Source of the DNA: Candidatus Aenigmatarchaeota archaeon
GTDB taxonomy: Archaea > Aenigmatarchaeota > Aenigmatarchaeia > CG10238-14
Reading direction: 5' to 3'
NCBI GenBank assembly: GCA_044343545.1
Contig: JAWBZR010000002.1
Location: 3,522 to 67,521 of the forward strand
Length of the DNA: 64,000 nt
A program made the translations under genes and the position numbers. Position 1 is the first letter of the stretch. Each line of letters opens with the position of its first letter. This document shows, piece by piece, positions 21,859 to 56,832 of this stretch. Under the pieces are notes generated by a model. That model saw only the letters and a program-made list of their open reading frames with translations. It was not told the origin of the DNA and ran no database searches.

Positions 21859-23481
21859 TTATTTTTGAATTTTATCGCTTAATTTTTTTATCTTTTCATC
21901 CAACTTCTTTTCAGCTTCCAATCTTTCTAAAGGATAGTCTTTAAAATCGACAAACTTTGTCGCGTACTCCGCTAGTAAGGGATGAACGTCCCTTACTTTT
22001 GATGCAATGGCTTGAGCTATCTTCCTGTAATATTCATGACCTTGAGGGGAGCTTCTCAACTCAGTTAAGTGAGAAATTTCACGCAAATTCAGTTTAAAAT
22101 ACCATCTTACTTTGAAACCCAATGGAACTATGTATTGTGCTTGTAAAGGCATTTTCTTTCTCACTTTCTCAAAAAAATTCTTCGCAGCCTCCATTGCTTT
22201 CACATATTTTGATTCCAATTTCGCTTCTGTAATGTCTTTTGGTACATCAAAACCATAATCAGTGGTGATGAGTTGTCTTTCTTGTGTAAGCATTCTATGT
22301 CTTTGCAAGTCCTTGTACGCGCCTAAAGGAGCCAAAATATCAAAAGTATAATAAGTGTTTTCAAAAGCTCTTCCTATTTTTTGTTGCCTAACTTTTCTTC
22401 TCGATGCATATTCAAAAACAATTTTTTTCTTTTCTTCTAAACTCATATTTTTCACAATTTTTCTCAATTCTTTCAAGCTCATGTCGGTGAAAGGATATAG
22501 CATCGATGCTATAACCTTTTCTTCCGCATCTTGATCATAATCAACAAGCTCAACATAACTTCCATCGTGCTCTTTAGCTTCGAATTTCTTACCTATTTTT
22601 TCCATTGCTTCTCTTGTTTGCTTAAAATATTCTTGCATAGCCTTTCCATGTTCCATTTTGGCTCTTTTCACGAAAGAAGGTATAACCTTATCCAATTCTT
22701 CTTGCATCATCAAAGCCAAATTTCTTACTTCGAAAAGCGGAGAAGCATACATCTTGTTCAGTAGATGCTCAAAAGCTCTTCCATTTCCAAACAGGCCAAC
22801 ATTTGTGAGAGTGGACGCCGGTAAAAGTTGTCTTAGAGTGTCGCATACTTTCGCTCTTATTGTTGCCTGATATGCTCTATCAGAAACATCTTTTGGTTGT
22901 GGATATTTTTTTTGCATGAAATCCGACATTTTTGGTATTAATTCGGAATATGTATCGAACAAGAAATCCATCGTTTCTTCGTACATTTCTCCAAATTCAG
23001 AGCTCATCAATTCGGGATCTCTATAATACTTGTACTTTCCATCTTCCTTTTGGTCGAAAAACACGTATCTCGTGGATTTTTCAAGCGGAGATATGCCTAT
23101 TCTATTATCTTCTAGCATCTTTGCCGCTATTAATTGTGAAACATCTTCGCATGCTACATGAACACCTGCCAATTCAGCTACGGAATCATCACCAAAACCT
23201 ATCAAAACTCTCTCATAAAATTCTTCAGCTTTTTGTGTGGCAATAAACTTTTCAAAATGTTTTCTTTCGTCCATTGAAACAATTTCTTTGAAATTCATTT
23301 CAGGATTTAAAATGAATTCTTCAAGCAAAACTCTTCTTAAACTCTTTGGCGATCTACTATATCTTGCAAACAAAGCACCCTTGACAACTTCCGGCAAGTT
23401 TATTAACACGAATACCGGCTTGTCCAAGTTTGTTAAAAAAGGTTGCAATATTTTTCTTTCTTCTTCGGTAAAATTTTCCAT
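21859..23481 (-). CDS. thyX: ThyX-like (flavin-dependent thymidylate synthase family) protein, unusually long at 540 aa
   Basis: N-terminal ...ALFARYSRS..., mid RHR motif (LQRHRMLTQERQ), C-terminal LREISHLTELRSSPQGHEYYRKIAQAI resembling the ThyX C-terminus. Adjacent to glyA. Confidence 0.6.
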   Translation of the reverse strand: MENFTEEERKILQPFLTNLDKPVFVLINLPEVVKGALFARYSRSPKSLRRVLLEEFILNPEMNFKEIVSMDERKHFEKFIATQKAEEFYERVLIGFGDDSVAELAGVHVACEDVSQLIAAKMLEDNRIGISPLEKSTRYVFFDQKEDGKYKYYRDPELMSSEFGEMYEETMDFLFDTYSELIPKMSDFMQKKYPQPKDVSDRAYQATIRAKVCDTLRQLLPASTLTNVGLFGNGRAFEHLLNKMYASPLFEVRNLALMMQEELDKVIPSFVKRAKMEHGKAMQEYFKQTREAMEKIGKKFEAKEHDGSYVELVDYDQDAEEKVIASMLYPFTDMSLKELRKIVKNMSLEEKKKIVFEYASRRKVRQQKIGRAFENTYYTFDILAPLGAYKDLQRHRMLTQERQLITTDYGFDVPKDITEAKLESKYVKAMEAAKNFFEKVRKKMPLQAQYIVPLGFKVRWYFKLNLREISHLTELRSSPQGHEYYRKIAQAIASKVRDVHPLLAEYATKFVDFKDYPLERLEAEKKLDEKIKKLSDKIQK

Positions 23482-34992: not shown

Positions 34993-36116
34993 TCTTCACC
35001 AACCTTGCCTATTAATTCGAACATACCAGTGCCTACCGGTACTTGTTGGTTGATCATGACATTATCAAATATTCCTTCAAATTCGTCCACTTCATTTCTT
35101 ACCGAAGCTCTAACAAGATGCTTTATCGTTTCTTCGAAACCTGCTCTTGAAAGAACCGCTGATTGCGTACCAGCAACACCATATCTTCCTACAGGCCTCA
35201 CTTCTCCAGTAAAACACATTATATCCGCAACCAATGTGATATGCCTTTCATCAACATTCAACCCCTGCTGTTTCAAGGTATTGTTTATTTCCCTTATGAG
35301 AATAGTTCTTGCAGCTTCTATACCTAAAATCTTTTCAACTTCGTGAAAATTGTTTGAGTATGTTCTTGTGAAATCCACTTCTTCAAGCTGAAATATTTTT
35401 TCTAAGTTTGATCCAAGTGTTTTTACAACCCAATCGTTTCCTTCTTTTACAACAACAGCATTTTTCACATTTTCCACACCACTTACATACGAGGCGAGAA
35501 CCTTTCTTTTCAATTTTTCAAGTTCTTTTATCGATATGTCTTGCTTGGGCTCTATGGTGATGGAGTTAGTGTGCGGTTTGACTTGATATCCTTTCAAAAG
35601 TTTTTGCAACCTTTCCACTATTTCATCCATTTCCTCTTTTGTAATCTTGCCAAAGTTTATTTTTATTTTTTTGTTGGTAAGGTCAGTTGTAACTTCAGTT
35701 GCAAAGTATTTTACCTTTTTTTCTTTGATTTTTTTCGAAAATTCCTCAGCCGCTTCTTTTGTATTGTGTTTTGGTTTTAGATATATAGTCATCATCGGAG
35801 TAGTAGGTTCTTTCCTCGCATCGAATATTTCTATTAATCTTGGCAAACCTAAAGTGACTTGAATGCCGGCCGAAGCTGCAAAGTGATATGTACGCATTGT
35901 CATTTGCGTCGCAGGTTCGGAAATCGATTGAGCCACAAGGATTCCTATAGCTTCTCCAGGTTGGAACATATTTTTGTAATATTCTCTCTTTACTTCTTCT
36001 ATCAATTTTATTTGCTGCTCTTCATTAAGCTTTCTTTGAGTGATGACCCTTTCCACTTCTTCCTTGAGATTGGCAGGAAAATCATCCAAATAATCTTCTA
36101 GCAATTTTTTCGACAT
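34989..36116 (-). CDS. rpoA2: DNA-directed RNA polymerase subunit A''
   Basis: 375 aa with ...[31 protein letters not shown]... trigger-loop region. Confidence 0.9.
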
Positions 36117-39100
36117 TTATATCACCCTTTTGTATTCTAGACGGGTCTAACCCGTCTTCAGCGGGAACAAATTGGATAATTTTTTTCATCGAATCTCTTA
36201 CAGTTCCATCATATTCTACCTTTAAATCTTTTAATGCACCTATCAATCTTCTTTCCAAGTAACCACTGTGTCTTGTCTTTAAAGATTTATCCATAAGACC
36301 TTCTCTGCTATTCATTGCATCGAAGAAAAATTCAAAAGGCGTTAATCCTGTTTTATAACCATGTCTAACAAAACCTTTGGATTCCAAACTTATATCATTT
36401 CTTTCAAAATGAGTGAATGTTCTCTTATAATAACCTATTCTTATTCTTTCTCCTCTCAAAGTTTCTTGACCTAAACAAGCGATGCATTGAACCATGTTAA
36501 CAAGACTGCCTCTTGCTCCGCTTTTGGCCATTATATATACAGAATTTTCTTGAATGTTTTTCGCAACTAAGTTTGTGATTTCATTAAGCGTGTCCGCTAA
36601 TTTTATTTTTATCAAAGTTTCCAGGGTTTCTCTCGGCGTCTTACCGACAACTCCTTTTATGTTACCTTTTTTGAATTCCTTAATCAATTCATTGACTTCA
36701 TCCTTTACTTTGTCAAGTTGATTGTTAATTTTTTCAATAATTTTTGGAGATACATCATAATCTGATATGGCTATGCTAAATCCATACCTTGTTAAAAATT
36801 CGAGCGAAAGTTTAGTGATATTGAATAAAAACTTCTTAGCATACTCACCTCCATAAACTTTTTCTATTTCATCAAGTATTTTGCCTTTGAAAGCACCAAC
36901 ACCACTTTCATCAATAAAACCTTCAAGCTCACCATTTTTTATGACAATTTTTGTATCGCCTTTAGTATATTCAAAGTTGAAATCTTTTGGCAAGAACAAG
37001 CTGAATATTTCTTGACCCGTAAATTCCTTCTTTTCCGGTACCTCTATTTCAAGATCACATGCTTTTACAAGCGATATCACATCCTTTCTTGGTAATTTCA
37101 TCTTTGTCGTCAAAATATAAAGCCCGGTTATATGATCATTTATAGCACCTATTATTACACTGCTAAACCTCGGACTTCTAAACTGTGTGGATACACGAGT
37201 GAGCAAGTTTGTTTCAACTTGAGCCTCTTTTGTTTGAGGTATGTGCAAATTCATTTCGTCTCCGTCAAAATCAGCATTATATGGTGGAGCAACCGTTAAA
37301 TTAAGTCTAAAAGTATTCCACGGCATAACTCTAACTCTATGTCCCATCATACTCATTCTATGCAAAGACGGCTGCCTGTTAAAGATGGACCAATCACCAT
37401 CTTCTATTTGTTTTTCAACAATATAGCCAGGTTCCAACTCTTTTATTATATCAGCCTTATTTTGCTCGGTAACTTTTTTTCTCCTTCCATCAGGTCTATT
37501 CACATAGTTTATTGTCGGCCATTCAGGATATCTTTCTATCATTTGTTTTATTTTTTCGATGTTTCTCTCGTTAACAACAACAGGTATTGTTAATTCTTTC
37601 GCTATTGATAGTGGAACGCCAACTTCATCTATATCCAAGAACGGGTCAGGACTTATGACAGTCCTTGCAGAATAGTTAACTCTTTTACCTATGAGGTTAC
37701 CTCTAAACCTACCTTCTTTCGTCTTCAATCTTTGTGCGAGTGTCTTTAATATTCTTCCAGATCTATGCCTTGCTGGAGGCACGCCACTAATTTCATTATT
37801 CATATAAGTTGCAACATGGTATTGCAACAATTCCCACAAATCTTGAATAATAAAGTCAGGAGCACCCAAGTCAATATTTTCTCTCAATCTCTTGTTTATT
37901 CTCACAATATCAACAAGTTTATGAGTTAGGTCATCTTCAGATCTTTCACCCGTTTCCAAGGTTATGGAAGGTCTCACCGTGACTGGTGGTATTGGTAAGA
38001 TAGTGAGCACGAAAACTTCTGGTCTCACACCTTTTATGCCAAGATATTGCAATTCTGAATCAGGTATTTTTTCCAATCTTTCTCTTATTTGCACAGGCGT
38101 TAAAACATCTTCATCTTCTTGATAAGTCGTTGGTTTAATATACTTTATTTTCTTTTGTTTTTCGTTGCAATAAGGACATGTAGATTTTACTAACGTTTTT
38201 AGCTTCTTTAATGATTTTTTCTTTTTGAGTTTTTCAGCATCTTCTGGTGTAATTAAAACCTTTCCACATTTTCTGCAAGTATATCTCAATATATTGTAAA
38301 TAAGTTTTGCATAGTTTACGTGGATTACGGGCTTTGTTAACTCTAAATGACCAAAATGACCTCTACATTCACCAACCGTGCCACCACACGTTCTACATCT
38401 TAAACCAGGATCTATAACGCCTAATCTAGGATCCATTAAACCTCCTTCTATCGGGTAACCTTCTTGATCATAAAGTTCTGTTTTGCTAATCTTGGATGCG
38501 GACATCTTCCTTATCATTTCAGGTGTCAATACGCTGAATGTTATTTTATCAATTATATTGAGATCTTCGTTGATTGTAAGTTTCGGATATATAACCATAC
38601 TTTTTAGCTCGTCCAATAGCAACTTGAAGGCGTAAGACATATCGACATCTATGATTTTTGAGCCTCCACACATGGGGCAGAATTTTTTGTTTTTCACCCT
38701 ATCGTTTATCGCTTCTATTCCACATTCTTTGCATATTGGTATTGAAATCTTGTCAGAATCGAACCTTTCTTTAAGCAAAAGGGAGGCGCCATGCGCAATT
38801 AAGCAGTCTTTTTCCATTTCCCCTAATCTCAATCCACCCATTTTTGATTTTCCTTCTGTTGGTTGTTTCGTCAACAATGCTACAGGACCTTTAGATCTAG
38901 CGTACATTTTATTTGAAACCAGGTGGTCAAGTTTTTGATAAAATATACTTCCTATGAGTATCTTGTTCATCAATTTTTGTCCGGTTCTACCGTCGAACAT
39001 AACTTCTTTACCATCATCGTCATAACCAAACTTCTTTAGCATTTCCCTTATTTGCTTTTCTTCTGGAGGATGAAATGGAGGGCTATATATCGGTTCGCCA

Positions 39101-40365
39101 GAAAGAGCGGCAACTTTAGCAGAAATAATTTCTAGAAGTTGACCAATAGTCATTCTTGATGGAATGCCGTGAGGATTAAACACCAAGTCAGGTACTATGC
39201 CTTCTTCGGTGAATGGCAAATCTTCTTCACCTATTATCAATCCAACTACGCCTTTTTGTCCGTGTCTACTCGCAAATTTGTCTCCCACTTCGGGAATCTT
39301 TAAATCTCTTATAACTACCTTCACAAGTTTGTTACCTTCAGAACTTTCTGTGATGAATACCCTATCAACTATCGCATTTTCGGAATGTTTCAATCTTACG
39401 GAAGTTTCTCTTATGTTCTCAAGGCTTGTTGTGAATTGATCTAATCCGCCTAAAAATCTCAAAGGTGAAGTTTTTCCTATCAAAACATCATCTTTCTTCA
39501 CATTAGTTTCCGGATTAACTATGCCATCTTCTGGTAAATGTTTATAAGCATCTTCACCTGCATATCCCCTTATTCCTGGTTGCGGTATTCCTATTACATC
39601 TTCTTGTCCACCTAAATATCTCTTTTCTTCAGCTTCATAAACCCTAAACATGTATGACCAGAACAAACCTCTTTCTATTGAGGATTTGTTTAGCACAATG
39701 GCATCTTCCATGTTGTATCCTAAAAACGACATGACAGCAATGGTAACGTTACATCCACCAGGATGCTCTTTATCGTTGATAATTTCGTTCATATGTGTCT
39801 TTACCAGCGGAACTTGAGGGTAAATCATTATGTTTGATTTCGTGTCAACTCTTAGAGGATAGTTTGAAGCATATATTCCTATGGATTGTCCTATCATCTT
39901 ACCTCCGAAATTAACCCTATCACCTCTGTTAAATTCTGCAAAAGGAACAAGAGAAGTTGCTATGCCAAATATGATAGTGGGATCTAGCTCCAAATGCGTG
40001 TGTTTGGGTGTAAGATCTTTTGGTGTTAACGCAACAAGAGCATTTTCTTCTTCTGTCGCATCCAAGTATTCTATAACACCTTGTTTTATTAGGTCACTCC
40101 ACTTAATTTTTCCTGCTTCCAAGGCTTTTATATGCTCTTCCGTTAATTTAGGTTTTCCCTTTTCTACAACTATTAATGGCCTTCTCGCCCTTCCAGGTTC
40201 AGTAGAAATCATGACTATATCAAAATGATCCAAGTAAGAGACGTTAAGCTGATTCGAAAGCAAACCTTTCCTTCTCTTTTCTCTCAACATTTCTACAAAT
40301 TTTTTTGCATCCTTTACCTTACCGACATATTTTCCGTCCAAAAACACATCAACCATTTTTCTCAA
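36082..40365 (-). CDS. rpoB1-rpoA1: DNA-directed RNA polymerase subunit B' (C-terminal half of split RpoB) fused in frame to subunit A' (1427-aa single ORF)
   Basis: Residues 1-600 carry RpoB C-terminal motifs ([15 protein letters not shown], zinc ribbon CKECG...CPMCG). Residues 603-1427 carry RpoA' motifs (clamp Zn CRTCGG...[22 protein letters not shown]). No stop or start codon at the junction ...[30 protein letters not shown]... at about 38540-38575. Confidence 0.85.
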
Positions 40366-41863
40366 CCTCTTTCAACACAGTATCCTCTATTATTTTGAAC
40401 TCTTTTTCAGTCACTCCAGAAGTAACTTGGGTCATTATCGCTAGATACTTTCTCAACCCAATCGTTGCACCTTCTGGTGTTTGTGACGGGTCAATCTTGC
40501 CCCATTGTGTTGGATGCAAAATTCTTGCTTCGAAATGTTCTTGAGTGGATGTAAGGGGTGACAATACATTTCTCATGTGTGAAAGTGTCTTTACAAAACT
40601 ACCTCTTTCCAACCTTTGTGACACGCCAGTCCTACCACCAACCCAAGAGCCTATTGCTATCGCTGAATTTACTTGGTTCGTTAAAACACTCGATTCGACG
40701 ATGGATTGCAAGGGCGGAAACCTCCCTCTTTTAGTAAGTTTTTGATAATTGTATGTTATTCTCGTTATAAGACCCCATTTACCAAGGAGTATCGACCTAA
40801 ACAATATTTCCAGCAGATCTCCGGACAATCTCAATCTTTTGTTAGAATAATGATCCAAATCATCTTTTGGTGTTTTTTTGAGATGATATTTTATAATCCT
40901 TTCACACGCTTTTATCAAGTAGAAAGCTTTTGTTAAACGATCCTTTTTTTCTTGACCTAAATGAGGAAGCAAATATTTGTCTAGTAACTTGTTGACCCTA
41001 TCTTGTCTATATTCTTTTTGAACAATTTTCAAGAAATCAGCAATCTCTTCCATAGCCTCCTTGCTTGTAGCTGCTTGTGTCTCAAACAAGTTTGGATAAA
41101 ACTCTTGCTGAACTTCAGGATCTTCGGATAAGCTCATAATTATGTCTCTATCCGTTTCTAAACCCAAAGCACGAATTAATATTATTATCGGCATTTTGTT
41201 AACATTCGCAAAACTTATTCTTATTATGCCGTCACCTTTCCTTTCTATTATGTGTCTTTGTATATATCCATCTTTTTCAGAATGAATTCTTGCCGTTTCC
41301 GTCACGTTGGGCGTGGATGACTTTTCTACTATTATTTTGTTTGGTGCTATTTCTTCTATTAACACAAGCACTCTTTCCGTTCCGTTTATGATAAAATAAC
41401 CGCCAGGGTCATCAGGGTCTTCGCCTGCCTTTATCAATTCGTCTCTATCCATTTTGGATAAAGGACAAATTTTTGATTTTAACATGATGGGAAGATCACC
41501 AAAGTTAACCATTACCGGTTCGCTTTCTATGTCGTTTAGGGTTGGTGTCATTTCAAGATACATTGGCGCAGAATACGTGAGGTTTCTTATCCTCGCTTCC
41601 AATGGCAATATAGGTCTTTCCGAGCCATCAGCTTCTTTTATCCAAGGGCCCCATCTATCATTTCCCAAAGGCTTGCCTATCTTAAATTTTCCTAATTTTA
41701 TTCTAAAATCTCCCAAGTCAGGAACTTCTGGTCTTATTTCTTTTATTTGTTTTATTATTGCAGGAATCCTGTTTTCAATGAAATCATTGTATGAATCTAT
41801 TTGAAATTTAACCAAACCTTCTTCCTTGACGAATGATTTTAACATCGTCATATATTCTTTCAT
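40349..41863 (-). CDS. rpoB2: DNA-directed RNA polymerase subunit B'' (N-terminal half of split RpoB)
   Basis: 504 aa with RpoB N-terminal lobe/protrusion patterns. Overlaps the rpoB' start by 17 nt. Confidence 0.9.
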   Translation of the reverse strand: MKEYMTMLKSFVKEEGLVKFQIDSYNDFIENRIPAIIKQIKEIRPEVPDLGDFRIKLGKFKIGKPLGNDRWGPWIKEADGSERPILPLEARIRNLTYSAPMYLEMTPTLNDIESEPVMVNFGDLPIMLKSKICPLSKMDRDELIKAGEDPDDPGGYFIINGTERVLVLIEEIAPNKIIVEKSSTPNVTETARIHSEKDGYIQRHIIERKGDGIIRISFANVNKMPIIILIRALGLETDRDIIMSLSEDPEVQQEFYPNLFETQAATSKEAMEEIADFLKIVQKEYRQDRVNKLLDKYLLPHLGQEKKDRLTKAFYLIKACERIIKYHLKKTPKDDLDHYSNKRLRLSGDLLEILFRSILLGKWGLITRITYNYQKLTKRGRFPPLQSIVESSVLTNQVNSAIAIGSWVGGRTGVSQRLERGSFVKTLSHMRNVLSPLTSTQEHFEARILHPTQWGKIDPSQTPEGATIGLRKYLAIMTQVTSGVTEKEFKIIEDTVLKEVEKNG

Positions 41864-41865
41864 TC

Positions 41866-42120
41866 CTATTCCTCCACAACGATTCTATAATACACAACTT
41901 CTTTTGCAATGCTACTCTTTCTTATTATTTTTATTAAATCTCCGGGTTTCGCTCCTAGCGCCTTCACGACAGGGTCAGTTGATTTTATTTGGGGAAGTTG
42001 ATTCAATTTTGTTATCTTATATTTTTCCAAGATTTTTTGCTTTTCTTCTTCAGAAACAATGTAATGTTTTGGCACCAATTCATGCTCTAAGATGTTAATA
42101 TTGGTTTCTTCTTTCAACAC
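41866..42120 (-). CDS. rpoH: DNA-directed RNA polymerase subunit H
   Basis: 84 aa. [19 protein letters not shown]...[11 protein letters not shown]. First gene of the rpo cluster. Confidence 0.8.
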
Positions 42121-42121
42121 A

Positions 42122-42225
42122 TCACCCTTTACGCTCTGGCCGGGATTTGAACCCGGGTCACGGGAGTTCTGCTTATTATTGACAGTCCCGTATGATTAGC
42201 CTCAAGGATGATTGGGCCAGCTACA
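42122..42225 (-). tRNA. tRNA-Asp (anticodon GUC) with two introns: a canonical 13-nt intron at 37/38 and a 16-nt insertion in the D-arm
   Basis: Reverse complement: GCTCTGG TA GTGTAGCTGGCC[CAATCATCCTTGAGGC]TAATCAT ACGGGA CTGTCA[ATAATAAGCAGAA]C TCCCG TGAC CCGGGTTCAAATCCCGG CCAGAGC G. The spliced form closely matches archaeal tRNA-Asp as recalled for Methanocaldococcus. Confidence 0.75.
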
Positions 42226-42332
42226 CTACCAGAGCAATTAAGATTTTTTTTATTAAAAGAATTTATAAAAATTTTTGCTGGGTTGGCAGTATAGCTATTT
42301 TTGATCAATAACACATCACCGTGAGTGAATGA

Positions 42333-42448
<116 letters not shown>

Positions 42449-42833
42449 TTTACTATTTTATACCAACAAATATTTAAAAATATAATTTTCGTCTACTCGA
42501 TAAAAAATTAAAAATTTTCGGCATTTTAAACATATGATTCCTGTAGTTGCGTGGGATATAGAGAGAACATTGATAACAACAAGCTATGAAAATGATTTTG
42601 CTGCTTTTTTAGCTCTTTTTTTAGGAAACGTAATTACGTTCAAGATAACCAATTTATGTAGATTAAATAGGCCTTACAAAACTTCACCTATACATATGTG
42701 TGATAAAGAGGGTGACGAAGCGGTAAGTTACGTAGGAGTTTCAGCAATCATAGTTGGAAATAAAGAAAATTTTATGGCACAAATATTCAAGTGTTGATAA
42801 TTTTTGTGATGGTAGAGTTATAGGGGTTTTATA

Positions 42834-42948
42834 ATCCCCCCGGCCGGATTTGAACCAGCAACCCTTCGGTTTCTGACGAGCATACGCCGGTGACGAATGC
42901 TTTTAGCAAACGTCTACAGCCGAATGCTCTACCGTTGAGCTACGGGGG
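42834..42948 (-). tRNA. tRNA-Tyr (anticodon GUA) with an intron of about 43 nt at the canonical position
   Basis: Reverse complement: CCCCCCG TA GCTC AACGGTA GAGC A TTCGG CTGTAG[A CGTTTGCTAAAAGCATTCGTCACCGGCGTATGCTCGTCAGAA]A CCGAA GGGTT GCTGG TTCAAAT CCGGC CGGGGGG A. The C1:G72 pair is the archaeal Tyr identity element. Confidence 0.8.
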
Positions 42949-43000
42949 GTCATAATTACAATAATCAATTTAATTAAAATATTTTAACCATATAATTTTT

Positions 43001-44398
43001 CTATTTCACTCTTTTGGAGAAGGTGACGATTTTTTCAGCAATCTTGTTTATGACACTCTTCCCTGATTTATAACTAAAGTAAGCTTTTGGCAACCTTACC
43101 TTTCCATCAATATTCATCGTTGGCTTTATTCTGTACGACAAAACTCTATCTTCTTTCGGTTTAAGTTTGTCTATTCTCCATATTAAATTTGTACCCTTTG
43201 GCGTGACTTTGATTTCAGGTTTCAACGTGTCGAATTCTTTGACAACGATGAATACAGGAGGAACAATATCTTTAACAACAACGTTGTCTATTTCTCTTAA
43301 AGAATTATTTTTTATGTGCAGTGTCACGAGATTTTCTTTTTCCAAATCTAATTTTTCAGAATATTTTTTCATCAATGTTGGTTTGTGTAAGAGGGAAAGA
43401 ATAAATGTCATGAAAAGTAGGAACAAAAATATAACAAAAGCAGCGCTACCAAATCTCAAAGAATATTGTAAGTTTACAGATTGATTGGGCTTGACATCAC
43501 TAAAACTCCACGTATAAGTTATTCTATTTTCTTTTTCTTCGCTTTTTTCTGGCTCAATTTCAGGATAAAAAAAGTATTTGGAAAATTTCGGCATGGTTTC
43601 CGTGATAATTATATTTTGAGGATAATTTCCCTTGTTCGTTACATTTATTGTGAATGTCACTTCCAACAAAGTTTTATGTATCTTTTTTTCTTTTTCTATC
43701 TCGCTATATTTTTTTATCGTGAAAAAACTTGATTTAGAATGAATAGGATTTCCAAATTCATCATACATAAAAACTTGAACTTTGTATAAGCCAGGTTCAT
43801 ATGTATTTTTTATTTCAAACGGTATCGACAAGGTTTTTGTTGTCAAAGGTTGCAGAATCAACTCTTCATCCAAAACCGCTATTTGCTCTTCATCCTTTAA
43901 TATTTTAGTTTTAACCATCACGTGTTTGCCCTGCGTTTTGTCCAAGTTAACTAACATTGGTTTTATGATTAGTGTTTCTTTCGGCGAAAAAACATCTTGA
44001 TTTAACGTCAAGTCAGAAAAATACGTTCCCGTTCTTCTTCTTATATTCAATATTATGTCCAAGCTTGCTATTTTGGTTGTTTGTGTTGATTTTGCTTTGA
44101 TACTAAAAACTACATTTCCCACATCTGCATCTATCGGCGGCTCTATGACAAATTTTATAATTTCTTCTTCGTTCGGATCTAAACTTACAAAATATTTTTC
44201 TAAACTTATCCAGCTACTGGGCCAAATTCCTATGTAAAAAGTATCTCTTTGTCCATCATCGTTGATTATTTTGAACTTGACTGTTGTTTTTTCTAAAGTA
44301 TAAACAGTTTCTGGATAATCCACCATTTCTATTCTTAATGACGATGCAAAGGGGAATAGTAAAAGCAAAAAAACAAGGACGAATTTCACCAGTTTCAT
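43001..44398 (-). CDS. Secreted/surface protein with N-terminal signal peptide and C-proximal TM anchor
   Basis: MKLVKFVLVFLLLLFPFASS signal, beta-rich body, hydrophobic stretch FVIFLFLLFMTFILSLL. 465 aa. Confidence 0.4.
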   Translation of the reverse strand: MKLVKFVLVFLLLLFPFASSLRIEMVDYPETVYTLEKTTVKFKIINDDGQRDTFYIGIWPSSWISLEKYFVSLDPNEEEIIKFVIEPPIDADVGNVVFSIKAKSTQTTKIASLDIILNIRRRTGTYFSDLTLNQDVFSPKETLIIKPMLVNLDKTQGKHVMVKTKILKDEEQIAVLDEELILQPLTTKTLSIPFEIKNTYEPGLYKVQVFMYDEFGNPIHSKSSFFTIKKYSEIEKEKKIHKTLLEVTFTINVTNKGNYPQNIIITETMPKFSKYFFYPEIEPEKSEEKENRITYTWSFSDVKPNQSVNLQYSLRFGSAAFVIFLFLLFMTFILSLLHKPTLMKKYSEKLDLEKENLVTLHIKNNSLREIDNVVVKDIVPPVFIVVKEFDTLKPEIKVTPKGTNLIWRIDKLKPKEDRVLSYRIKPTMNIDGKVRLPKAYFSYKSGKSVINKIAEKIVTFSKRVK

Positions 44399-50995: not shown

Positions 50996-51086
50996 AGCCC
51001 CGTCGTCTAGATGGCTTTGCCAGGATAACGGTCAAGGATAGCGGGCTTTGGACCCGTTGACAGCGGTTCGAATCCGCTCGGGGCTA
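50996..51086 (+). tRNA. tRNA-Gln (anticodon UUG) with an insertion (intron) of about 19 nt in the D-arm
   Basis: AGCCCCG TC GTCT AGATGGCTTTGCCAGGATAACGGTCAA GGAT A GCGGG CTTTGGA CCCGT TGAC AGCGG TTCGAAT CCGCT CGGGGCT A. The A1:U72 pair and 3' half match archaeal tRNA-Gln. The 5' half is 19 nt too long. Confidence 0.7.
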
Positions 51087-55410: not shown

Positions 55411-56832
55411 ATGAAATATGACAAAATTCTAAAAGAGGTTTTAAAAAAAATCACGCCTAAATCAAAAGAAGAAAAAAAAATCAAGTCACTGAGTAAAAAA
55501 ATACTTGAAACAGCAAATCATCTTTCATTTTTCTACGGAGCTAAGGCTATTTTAGCCGGTTCATTAACAAGAAATACATGGTTGCCAAATAAAAATGAAA
55601 TAGATGTTTTTATCCTCTTCCCGAAAAATTTGAGCATAAAACATTTAGAGGAAAATGGTTTGGAAGTTGGCAAAAAAATAGTAGAAGAATTAGGTGGCAA
55701 GTGGACAATAGAATATGCGCAACACCCTTACATAAGAGGAACAATAAATGGCATAAACATCGACATCGTTCCTTGTTACAAATTAGAAAAAGGAGAAAAA
55801 ATAATATCTGCTGTTGATAGAACGCAATTTCATGTAGAATACTTGGAAAATAAGATATCTAAAAAATTAAGTAGCGAGGTTAGACTGTTAAAACAATTTT
55901 TGAAAGCTAATGGCTTGTATGGCGCTGATGCAAAAACAAATGGCTTTTCCGGATATTTATGCGAGTTGTTGATAATTCATTACAAGAATTTTTTGAATTT
56001 TCTTGAAGCAGCAAAAAATTGGAGAGTAAAAGAAATAATAGACATAGAAAATCAATGGAAAAAAGAAGAGTACAATCATTTGAAGAAAAAGTTTAAGGAT
56101 GAAGTTTTGATAGTGATAGATCCTGTAGACAAGGAAAGAAACGTTGCTTCGGCGGTTAGCGCTTATAACTTTTTCAAACTGAAAAAATTAGCAAGAGAAT
56201 TTTTGGAAAATCCAAGTGAAAGTTTCTTTTTTGAAAAAGAAATTAAACCTCTTTCTAAAAAAGAATTTGATGAGGTTTTAAAAGAGAGAGGAACTGAAAT
56301 AATAGGTATATTTTTCGAGCCACCAAAGATAGTTCCAGATATATTATGGCCACAATTAAGAAAAGCAACCAAAAGATTAGAAAGCATAATTGAAGAGTAC
56401 GAGTTTTCTGTTTTGAAAAGCGATTGTTGGACTGATGAAAAAAAGATTGCAGTCATTTTATTAGAAATGCAAGTAAGCAATTTACCTAGAATTGATAAAA
56501 TAATTGGCCCATGGGTTTTTGATGAAAAAAACGCGAAAAATTTTGCTGAGAAACACAAAGCTGATGCAATAGCAGGACCATACATAGAAGATAATTGTTG
56601 GGTGGTTGAGGTTAAGAGAAAATGGACATCTGCTAAACTTAAATTAATAGATTCTATAAGTAAAGATAAGGAAATTCTCAAAGCAAAAGGAATACCAAAT
56701 TTTATTGCCGAGCAATTATCAAAAGATTTCAATGTAGTTTCAAACGATGAAATAAAAAATTATTTCAAAAACAAAGAGTTTGCAATATTCATGAGAAAAT
56801 ATTTTGAAAAGGAAAATCTTGCTTTATTTTAG
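55411..56832 (+). CDS. cca: CCA-adding enzyme (archaeal class I tRNA nucleotidyltransferase)
   Basis: GSLTRNTWLPNKNEIDVFILFP class-I NTase head. 473 aa. Confidence 0.7.
   Translation: MKYDKILKEVLKKITPKSKEEKKIKSLSKKILETANHLSFFYGAKAILAGSLTRNTWLPNKNEIDVFILFPKNLSIKHLEENGLEVGKKIVEELGGKWTIEYAQHPYIRGTINGINIDIVPCYKLEKGEKIISAVDRTQFHVEYLENKISKKLSSEVRLLKQFLKANGLYGADAKTNGFSGYLCELLIIHYKNFLNFLEAAKNWRVKEIIDIENQWKKEEYNHLKKKFKDEVLIVIDPVDKERNVASAVSAYNFFKLKKLAREFLENPSESFFFEKEIKPLSKKEFDEVLKERGTEIIGIFFEPPKIVPDILWPQLRKATKRLESIIEEYEFSVLKSDCWTDEKKIAVILLEMQVSNLPRIDKIIGPWVFDEKNAKNFAEKHKADAIAGPYIEDNCWVVEVKRKWTSAKLKLIDSISKDKEILKAKGIPNFIAEQLSKDFNVVSNDEIKNYFKNKEFAIFMRKYFEKENLALF

Follow-up and report, generated by a model that had tools for sequence, protein, structure and literature searches.

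A tRNA-Asp(GUC) gene of a Candidatus Aenigmatarchaeota archaeon is interrupted twice, once in the D-loop and once in the anticodon loop, and is very likely a functional gene whose two short introns are removed by the archaeal protein splicing endonuclease. The gene lies in a 64,000-nucleotide stretch of contig JAWBZR010000002.1, referred to here as the window and numbered from its first letter. The RpoB'' protein encoded in the window is 100% identical to an NCBI protein labelled as a metagenome-assembled genome (MAG) of a Candidatus Aenigmatarchaeota archaeon, and its next relatives bear the same label. Pfam searches identified further archaeal genes, namely rpoH, a split rpoB'', EF-2, EF-1alpha, MCM, TBP, an archaeal-type threonyl-tRNA synthetase and a CCA-adding enzyme. 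A sequence-only reading of the same DNA had proposed a DPANN-type archaeon whose tRNA-Asp carries a canonical intron together with a non-canonical one in the D-arm, and this proposal is supported here. The length of 104 nt and the identity that it gave to the gene were likewise borne out by the sequence, by a scan for T-arm and acceptor pairing and by ARAGORN on the spliced form. The span that it reported, 42122-42225, was wrong by 10 nt and overran the start of rpoH; the gene occupies 42132-42235 on the minus strand.

The tRNA-Asp gene and its two introns

The 104-nt minus-strand sequence contains every exonic part of tRNA-Asp(GUC) (GCUCUGGUAGUGUAGCUGGCCCAAUCAUCCUUGAGGCUAAUCAUACGGGACUGUCAAUAAUAAGCAGAACUCCCGUGACCCGGGUUCAAAUCCCGGCCAGAGCG). 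Excision of both introns leaves 74 nt, which form a normal cloverleaf, are identified by ARAGORN as tRNA-Asp(gtc) and match the intron-less orthologues column for column in a MAFFT alignment. This product has a G10-U25 pair, a 10-nt D-loop (AGCUGGCCCA), the anticodon GUC, C38 and G73. The aspartate identity set established for recognition by aspartyl-tRNA synthetase consists of G73, C38, G10 and the anticodon GUC. All of these nucleotides are present after splicing, with G10 paired to U25.

Junctions were located with a search in which each gene was aligned to an intron-less orthologue and jumps were permitted only at splice sites compatible with a fixed geometry, the last six exon bases comprising four helix and two bulge bases and the last six intron bases being divided in the same way. 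For the window gene, this search selected p=23/q=40 (17 nt) and p=56/q=69 (13 nt), both with a central helix paired at four of four positions. The 13-nt insert between positions 37 and 38 (ATAATAAGCAGAA) is exactly the one anticipated by the sequence-only reading, at 42167-42179, and MAFFT also places it after CUGUCA in the anticodon loop. Its central helix is formed by C32-G, U33-A, G34-C and U35-G, with the intron contributing GCAG, and is accompanied by an outer helix of 7 bp. The 3' bulge AA|C38 is closed by the anticodon stem, and the minimum free energy (MFE) fold shows both the helix and the bulge. A 9-nt terminal loop contains the 5' site CA|A (h' = 1), as in the hBH, or bulge-helix-loop (BHL), form. 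An equal or better motif occurred in 0.9% of intron shuffles.

The D-arm insert had been described as 16 nt (CAATCATCCTTGAGGC) at about 42189-42206. On the basis of the MAFFT alignment and the helix register, it is instead 17 nt (ATCATCCTTGAGGCTAA) at 42196-42212. When aligned with close relatives and three intron-less orthologues, the 17-nt insert in the D-loop is preceded by GGCCY and followed by A(U/G)CAU. The central helix consists of G18-U, G19-C, C20-G and C20a-G, with GGCU as the 3' segment of the intron. A 3-bp inner hairpin, UCA/UGA with the loop UCCU, closes the 5' bulge CA|A, and the 3' site AA|U22 lies within the three nucleotides joining the central helix to the D stem. In the register test, the combination of a 4/4 central helix and a 3-bp inner helix was unique to the 17-nt register, and an equal or better motif was found in 0.08% of intron shuffles (fraction 0.0008). 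As ARAGORN returns Asp(gtc) for the 16-nt and 17-nt versions alike, it is the motif and the alignment with orthologues that decide for 17 nt. The direct AATCAT repeat noted earlier around the insert is indeed present, at pre-tRNA positions 23-28 and 39-44, but does not mark the splice junction. The repeat results from the intron opening with AUCAU and the downstream exon with UCAU, and its only effect is to give a 16-nt deletion a plausible look.

A fold with bulge-helix-bulge (BHB) motifs at both exon-intron junctions had been suggested as a check on the two inserts. A 4-bp central helix was found at each of them, but neither has the strict hBHBh' form. Both introns thus have relaxed motifs, HBh'-like for the D-loop intron and hBH/BHL for the canonical one. 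In organisms whose EndA has a broad specificity, introns with such relaxed motifs are counted as EndA-dependent tRNA introns (PMC3239211). Self-splicing group I or group II introns were ruled out, as the inserts are only 13 and 17 nt long, compared with a catalytic core of a few hundred nucleotides. No match to an Rfam intron family was obtained in 41500-43500, even at E <= 10.

Orthologous tRNA-Asp genes in the phylum

A scan for RpoB'' in species-representative genomes yielded 80 Aenigmatarchaeota loci, and in 56 of these a tRNA-Asp(GUC) gene lies about 270 nt upstream of rpoB'', as it does in the window. The window and these 56 related loci, collected by tRNA-Asp-rpoH-rpoB'' synteny, provide 57 orthologous genes with lengths of 72-127 nt, the uninterrupted ones measuring 72-73 nt. 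Thirteen genes have no intron, and all 11 of these that were submitted to ARAGORN were called tRNA-Asp(gtc) at that position. The other 44 have one to three introns, distributed over nine sites: 15/16 (5 genes), 21/22 (13 genes, the window and 12 orthologues), 24/25 (11 genes), 27/28 (1 gene), 29/30 (4 genes), 37/38 (13 genes), 38/39 (1 gene), 43/44 (2 genes) and 45/46 (7 genes). Three introns in a single gene are found, for example, in loci L052 and L061. The junctions of L003-L005, the closest relatives of the window, and of L018 were corrected by hand. The automatic solutions for these loci removed G18-G19 or divided one intron into two, which is attributed to a C.A mismatch and AT-rich sequence.

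At every site, the intron ends in a segment complementary to the exon sequence before the splice site, with GGCC/GGCU at 21/22, CUAU/GUAG at 24/25, GUCU/GGAY at 15/16 and CUGU/GCAG at 37/38. At site 21/22, the conserved G18G19C20 segment serves as the exon strand. Of the central-helix positions in 51 distinct junctions, 97% are paired, versus 28-46% with the partner slid by 1-3 nt, a comparison that is somewhat circular in that the registers were partly chosen by pairing. For site 21/22, the corresponding values are 98% and 12-58%. The central helix is complete (4/4) in 45 of the 51 junctions. Two features that played no part in the choice of register are nearly invariant: adenine occupies the penultimate intron position in 51/51 junctions and the first one in 47/51. 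Additionally, 49/51 junctions have a purine at the second position of the 5' bulge. This asymmetric signature of adenines and purines could reflect base stacking in the bulge pocket of the endonuclease. The introns of the tRNA-Gln and tRNA-Tyr genes in the window obey the same base rule.

The closest relatives also allow the exons and introns to be compared directly. Exons 2 (16/16) and 3 (35/35) of L003-L005 are identical to those of the window, and exon 1 has two base differences and one indel, in genomes whose RpoB'' is 84-89% identical to that of the window. The loop parts of both introns vary freely in these loci with the pairing segments kept; in the canonical intron, the loops AUAAUAA, ACUAUAG, UCAUAUG and UCGCUUG differ among the window and L003-L005, and the pairing segment GCAGAA is retained. 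Identical exons combined with drifting intron loops argue against both a pseudogene and an assembly artefact. The latter is further disfavored because the relatives are independent MAGs and because the window sequence is also present in a Logan assembly.

One possible, though on balance rather unlikely, interpretation of the series is that a syntenic tRNA-Asp gene has repeatedly gained and lost endonuclease-type introns within a single phylum. Should the A signature stem from base-specific recognition by an endonuclease peculiar to the Aenigmatarchaeota, or be a footprint of the insertion mechanism, for example, of reverse splicing through endonuclease and ligase, the tRNA-Asp locus would offer a natural series in which the movement of such introns could be tested. 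The 57-gene set, with zero to three introns at nine sites of one syntenic gene, offers compact data on the gain and loss of protein-spliced introns.

Alternative readings, maturation and the splicing endonuclease

Several observations weigh against a functional gene with two endonuclease-spliced introns. The D-loop motif is not a strict BHB, as its 3' site lies opposite five unpaired nucleotides (U13-U17) and the outer helix is lacking (h = 0). The MFE fold is a continuous hairpin with a 1-nt bulge and no D stem, at -40.0 kcal/mol versus -36.0 kcal/mol for the BHB-cloverleaf; we treat this preference as a limit of thermodynamic folding rather than as evidence against the BHB model. Covariation at site 21/22 is weak: a single compensatory change is seen, from C-G through U-G to U-A, and a score as high was reached in 297 of 500 shuffles. 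The central helix of L003-L005 contains a C.A mismatch. The survey covered the 64-kb window, and a second tRNA-Asp copy may lie elsewhere in the genome. No EndA or RtcB gene was found in the window, EndA having been sought by Pfam on 50 open reading frames (ORFs), by tblastn with Methanocaldococcus jannaschii EndA and with an EndA hidden Markov model on six-frame ORFs. Finally, the six EndA-bearing contigs that were examined have no accession in common with the Aenigmatarchaeota MAGs.

The length of the D-arm intron is the detail on which an alternative comes closest to the proposed structure. A 16-nt intron, CAATCATCCTTGAGGC or another 16-nt register in the AATCAT repeat, would give a 75-nt tRNA with an 11-nt D-loop. 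The junction would be GGCCCAAUCAUA or GGCCUAAUCAUA, in place of the GGCCCA|UCAUA left by the 17-nt excision. ARAGORN names both 16-nt products tRNA-Asp(gtc), seven 16-nt registers yield an identical product thanks to the direct repeat, and the closest relatives, L003-L005, themselves have a 16-nt intron and an 11-nt D-loop. However, the junctions of these relatives are the same as those of the window (YA|AUCAU ... AA|UCAU), and the difference in length comes from the interior of the intron and from the part of the D-loop that precedes G18. Moreover, the 16-nt registers pair at two to three of the four positions (at best 3/4, with an internal G.G mismatch) and are equaled by 13-35% of shuffles, and alignment with the intron-less orthologues by MAFFT assigns 17 nt to the insert in the window. 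We therefore regard a 16-nt intron as improbable.

Two further readings concern the function of the gene and the fate of the D-loop insert. That the gene is a decaying or silent pseudogene, with a functional uninterrupted tRNA-Asp at another place in the genome, would fit the failure of standard tRNA finders to call it and the possible second copy mentioned above. Against this stand the exon conservation in relatives whose intron loops have diverged, the place beside rpoH, which is kept across the phylum and is occupied there by ordinary tRNA-Asp genes in the intron-less versions, and the integrity after excision of every cloverleaf stem and of GUC, C38, G73 and G10. This makes a pseudogene highly improbable. 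Least credible, and in our view close to negligible, is the retention of the 17 extra nucleotides in the mature tRNA as an enlarged D-loop hairpin in place of a D-loop intron. The MFE fold does house the insert as a stable hairpin, and the D-loop 3' splice site does lie outside a clean bulge, but a retained hairpin would sequester G18-G19, which are universally conserved and required for the interaction of the D-loop with the T-loop. Furthermore, some orthologues have 13-32 nt inserted at this very point, others are interrupted at eight further points or have no insert, and the adenines at the first (47/51) and penultimate (51/51) intron positions argue for a shared cleavage mechanism.

For the two-intron gene, the following maturation pathway is proposed from the sequence. 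In the 104-nt precursor, the 4-bp helix between C32-U35 and GCAG lengthens the anticodon stem and exposes the 3' site of the canonical intron in a 3-nt bulge and the 5' site in the loop, and pairing of G18, G19, C20 and C20a with GGCU exposes the 5' site of the D-loop intron in a 3-nt bulge. EndA would cleave the sites of both introns, cutting after the second nucleotide of each bulge and releasing 17 nt and 13 nt, and an RtcB-type ligase would join the three exons. The CCA-adding enzyme encoded in the window would then add CCA to the spliced tRNA-Asp, an enzyme that is needed because the tRNA genes of the window do not encode CCA. As the D-loop intron sequesters G18-G19, formation of the D-loop/T-loop elbow would be blocked until it is removed, and splicing at this site is therefore predicted to be obligatory for tRNA-Asp.

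The endonuclease expected to act on these introns can be considered in light of known enzyme types. Endonucleases of the alpha4 and alpha'2 types need a strict motif, and those of the (alpha-beta)2 and epsilon2 types cut relaxed, non-canonical motifs (PMC3239211, PMC5829648, PMC12397907). In other DPANN lineages, disrupted tRNA genes are associated with alpha4 enzymes bearing an L3 loop (PMC3239211, PMC5829648). Because both tRNA-Asp intron motifs are relaxed, it is a reasonable inference, already drawn in the sequence-only reading, that the splicing endonuclease of the Aenigmatarchaeota has a broad specificity, and we predict that it accepts relaxed motifs. No EndA was detected in the 10 kb past the right-hand end of the window. 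A protein-database search with M. jannaschii EndA (checked against PDB 1A79) returned alpha4-sized proteins from Methanococcales and from Nanoarchaeota/Woesearchaeota, none of them labelled Aenigmatarchaeota. An EndA profile search, which was poorly designed for this purpose and was swamped by two-domain alpha'2 enzymes of methanogens, likewise gave no Aenigmatarchaeota EndA.

Gene detection, neighboring genes and known systems

The interrupted tRNA-Asp gene escapes standard searches. It was not called by ARAGORN in the genomic sequence, in which three other tRNAs of the window were called, and the Rfam tRNA model gave no match to it at the gathering threshold or at E <= 10. In its intron mode, ARAGORN labels the gene wrongly as tRNA-Leu. 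The scan for a T-arm and 7-bp acceptor pairing identified six tRNA genes in the window (Leu, Ala, Ile, Asp, Tyr and Gln), three of which are interrupted, two of them in the D-loop. Interrupted tRNA-Asp orthologues are also missed or misnamed by ARAGORN, as in L023, whose gene at 2656-2742 contains a 13-nt D-loop intron and receives the label tRNA-Met(cat). Pieces of interrupted tRNA-Tyr genes show up as tRNA-Leu or tRNA-Asn (L052 1044-1129; L058 2026-2114). Such misnaming is a hazard for the automatic annotation of Aenigmatarchaeota genomes. Because the tRNA-Asp gene here, the only one observed in the region, escapes both ARAGORN and Rfam and a close orthologue is misnamed tRNA-Met, estimates of tRNA complement and completeness for Aenigmatarchaeota MAGs will under-count tRNAs unless the searches are intron-aware and BHB-based.

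The interruption of the tRNA-Gln and tRNA-Tyr genes in the window, which the sequence-only reading had mentioned, was confirmed by Rfam, the T-arm scan and BHB registers. The tRNA-Gln intron forms a full BHB, with the central helix GUCU/GGAU, the inner helix UGGC/GCCA and the bulges AG|A and AA|C. This gene was missed by ARAGORN, and the Rfam match at 51013-51086 (29.4 bits) is a misalignment of it. A canonical tRNA-Tyr(GUA) intron of about 38-43 nt with a conserved hairpin is present in essentially every Aenigmatarchaeota locus where tRNA-Tyr was seen; the gene lies upstream in most loci, for example in L003-L064. A universal tRNA-Tyr intron recalls the intron-dependent formation of pseudouridine-35 known elsewhere. 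An extra D-loop intron occurs in the tRNA-Tyr genes of L010, L016, L028, L035, L047, L048, L050 and L052, and those of L030, L037 and L039 have further inserts. Other related loci contain tRNA-Leu-like genes of 131-135 nt with inserts of about 45 nt in the anticodon region (L073, L074) and a plus-strand tRNA-like candidate (L078; T-arm at about 1165, span about 236 nt, insert about 160 nt).

Table 1. Positions in the window of the tRNA-Asp gene, its parts and other features discussed in the text.
Feature	Position	Strand	Description	Basis
tRNA-Asp(GUC) gene	42132..42235	(-)	104 nt, three exons and two introns; CCA not encoded; discriminator G	Sequence; T-arm and acceptor scan; ARAGORN on spliced product
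Exon 1 (pre-tRNA 1-23)	42213..42235	(-)	Acceptor 5' strand, D-stem 5' strand GUGU, D-loop AGCUGGCCCA to A21	Junction search and MAFFT, both versus intron-less orthologues
Non-canonical D-loop intron, site 21/22	42196..42212	(-)	17 nt, ATCATCCTTGAGGCTAA	MAFFT; junction search; register test
Exon 2 (pre-tRNA 41-56)	42180..42195	(-)	D-stem 3' strand UCAU, A26, anticodon-stem 5' strand, anticodon loop to A37 (anticodon GUC)	Junction search; ARAGORN
Canonical intron, site 37/38	42167..42179	(-)	13 nt, ATAATAAGCAGAA	Position mapping; MFE fold; register test
Exon 3 (pre-tRNA 70-104)	42132..42166	(-)	C38, anticodon-stem 3' strand, variable loop, T-arm, acceptor 3' strand, G73	Alignment with L003-L005
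TATA-like element	42260..42269	(-)	TTTATAAATT, 25-34 nt upstream of tRNA-Asp 5' end	Read from sequence
5S rRNA gene	42334..42448	(-)	98 nt upstream of tRNA-Asp	Rfam RF00001, 87.3 bits
rpoH (RNA polymerase subunit H)	41866..42120	(-)		Pfam RNA_pol_Rpb5_C, E = 1e-31
tRNA-Tyr(GUA)	42835..42949	(-)	43-nt canonical intron, 42871-42913	Rfam tRNA 56.7 bits, 46-nt anticodon-loop insertion; BHB register p=36, q=79
tRNA-Gln(UUG)	50996..51086	(+)	18-nt D-loop intron at 15/16, 51011-51028, ATGGCTTTGCCAGGATAA	T-arm scan; register test
CCA-adding enzyme	55411..56832	(+)		Pfam tRNA_NucTransf2, CAA_C, NTP_transf_2

The TATA-like element TTTATAAATT is the putative archaeal promoter of tRNA-Asp. The GTG start codon of rpoH, at 42120, lies 11 nt past the 3' end of tRNA-Asp and is followed further on by rpoB''. 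The tRNA may be co-transcribed with the RNA polymerase operon. A ribosome-binding-like GGGTGAT is found between the tRNA 3' end and the rpoH start. Downstream, rpoB' and rpoA' form one ORF of 1427 aa (36082-40365, minus strand), with Pfam Rpb2 domains 4-7 followed by Rpb1 domains 1-4. In about 30 related loci, the ORF after rpoB'' is about 1000 aa or more and reaches the end of the locus, which suggests a fusion. It ends at about 600 aa in about 35-40 loci, which suggests separate genes, and in L077-L080 rpoB is unsplit (1115 aa). Elsewhere in the window, a ThyX (Thy1) homologue (21859-23481, minus strand) aligns to its Pfam domain in two stretches and, at 540 aa, is about twice as long as usual, so that a tandem-domain form is possible.

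Multiple and non-canonical tRNA introns are well described in Thermoproteales, Nanoarchaeum and ARMAN-2, and tRNA gene disruption is known in several other DPANN lineages (PMC4090602, PMC3239211, PMC5829648). Pyrobaculum tRNA-Pro, for example, has introns at 25/26, 37/38 and 56/57 (PMC4090602, PMC3239211). The tRNA-Asp genes described here resemble those of Thermoproteales and other Crenarchaeota in having short introns whose splice sites flank a 4-bp helix, multiple introns in a gene, sites in the D-arm, anticodon stem and variable region, and relaxed HBh'/hBH motifs (PMC4090602, PMC3239211). They differ in their host, a DPANN lineage with AT-rich intergenic DNA. Site 21/22 does not appear in the reviewed list (20/21, 22/23, 25/26, 29/30, 30/31, 45/46, 53/54, 56/57, 59/60, "etc."), although it is adjacent to sites that do. 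Crenarchaeota splice with an (alpha-beta)2 EndA bearing a crenarchaea-specific loop.

A parallel within the DPANN archaea is Candidatus Micrarchaeum acidiphilum ARMAN-2, which has an epsilon2 EndA and interruptions in over half of its tRNA genes, with some tRNA genes missed by standard finders (PMC3239211, PMC12397907). Its non-canonical introns have hBH (bulge-helix-loop) motifs and are as short as 13 nt (PMC3239211, PMC12397907). ARMAN-2 belongs to a different phylum, however, and the introns described there are in the T-loop (53/54, 59/60). Kaneta et al. (2018) pointed out that incomplete tRNA sets hint at undetected disrupted genes (PMC5829648), and the tRNA-Asp of the window is exactly such a gene. 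Their survey covered Pacearchaeota, Woesearchaeota, Nanohaloarchaea and Mancarchaeum and no Aenigmarchaeota genomes (PMC5829648), and a full-text literature search found no description of tRNA introns in Aenigmatarchaeota. The number of insertion sites in one syntenic orthologue and the uniform A signature at the junctions are the one respect in which the locus goes somewhat beyond expectation. This kind of interruption is already known, but the papers searched contain no account of it for the present lineage; the range of multi-intron and non-canonical-intron tRNA genes thereby widens to include one more DPANN phylum.

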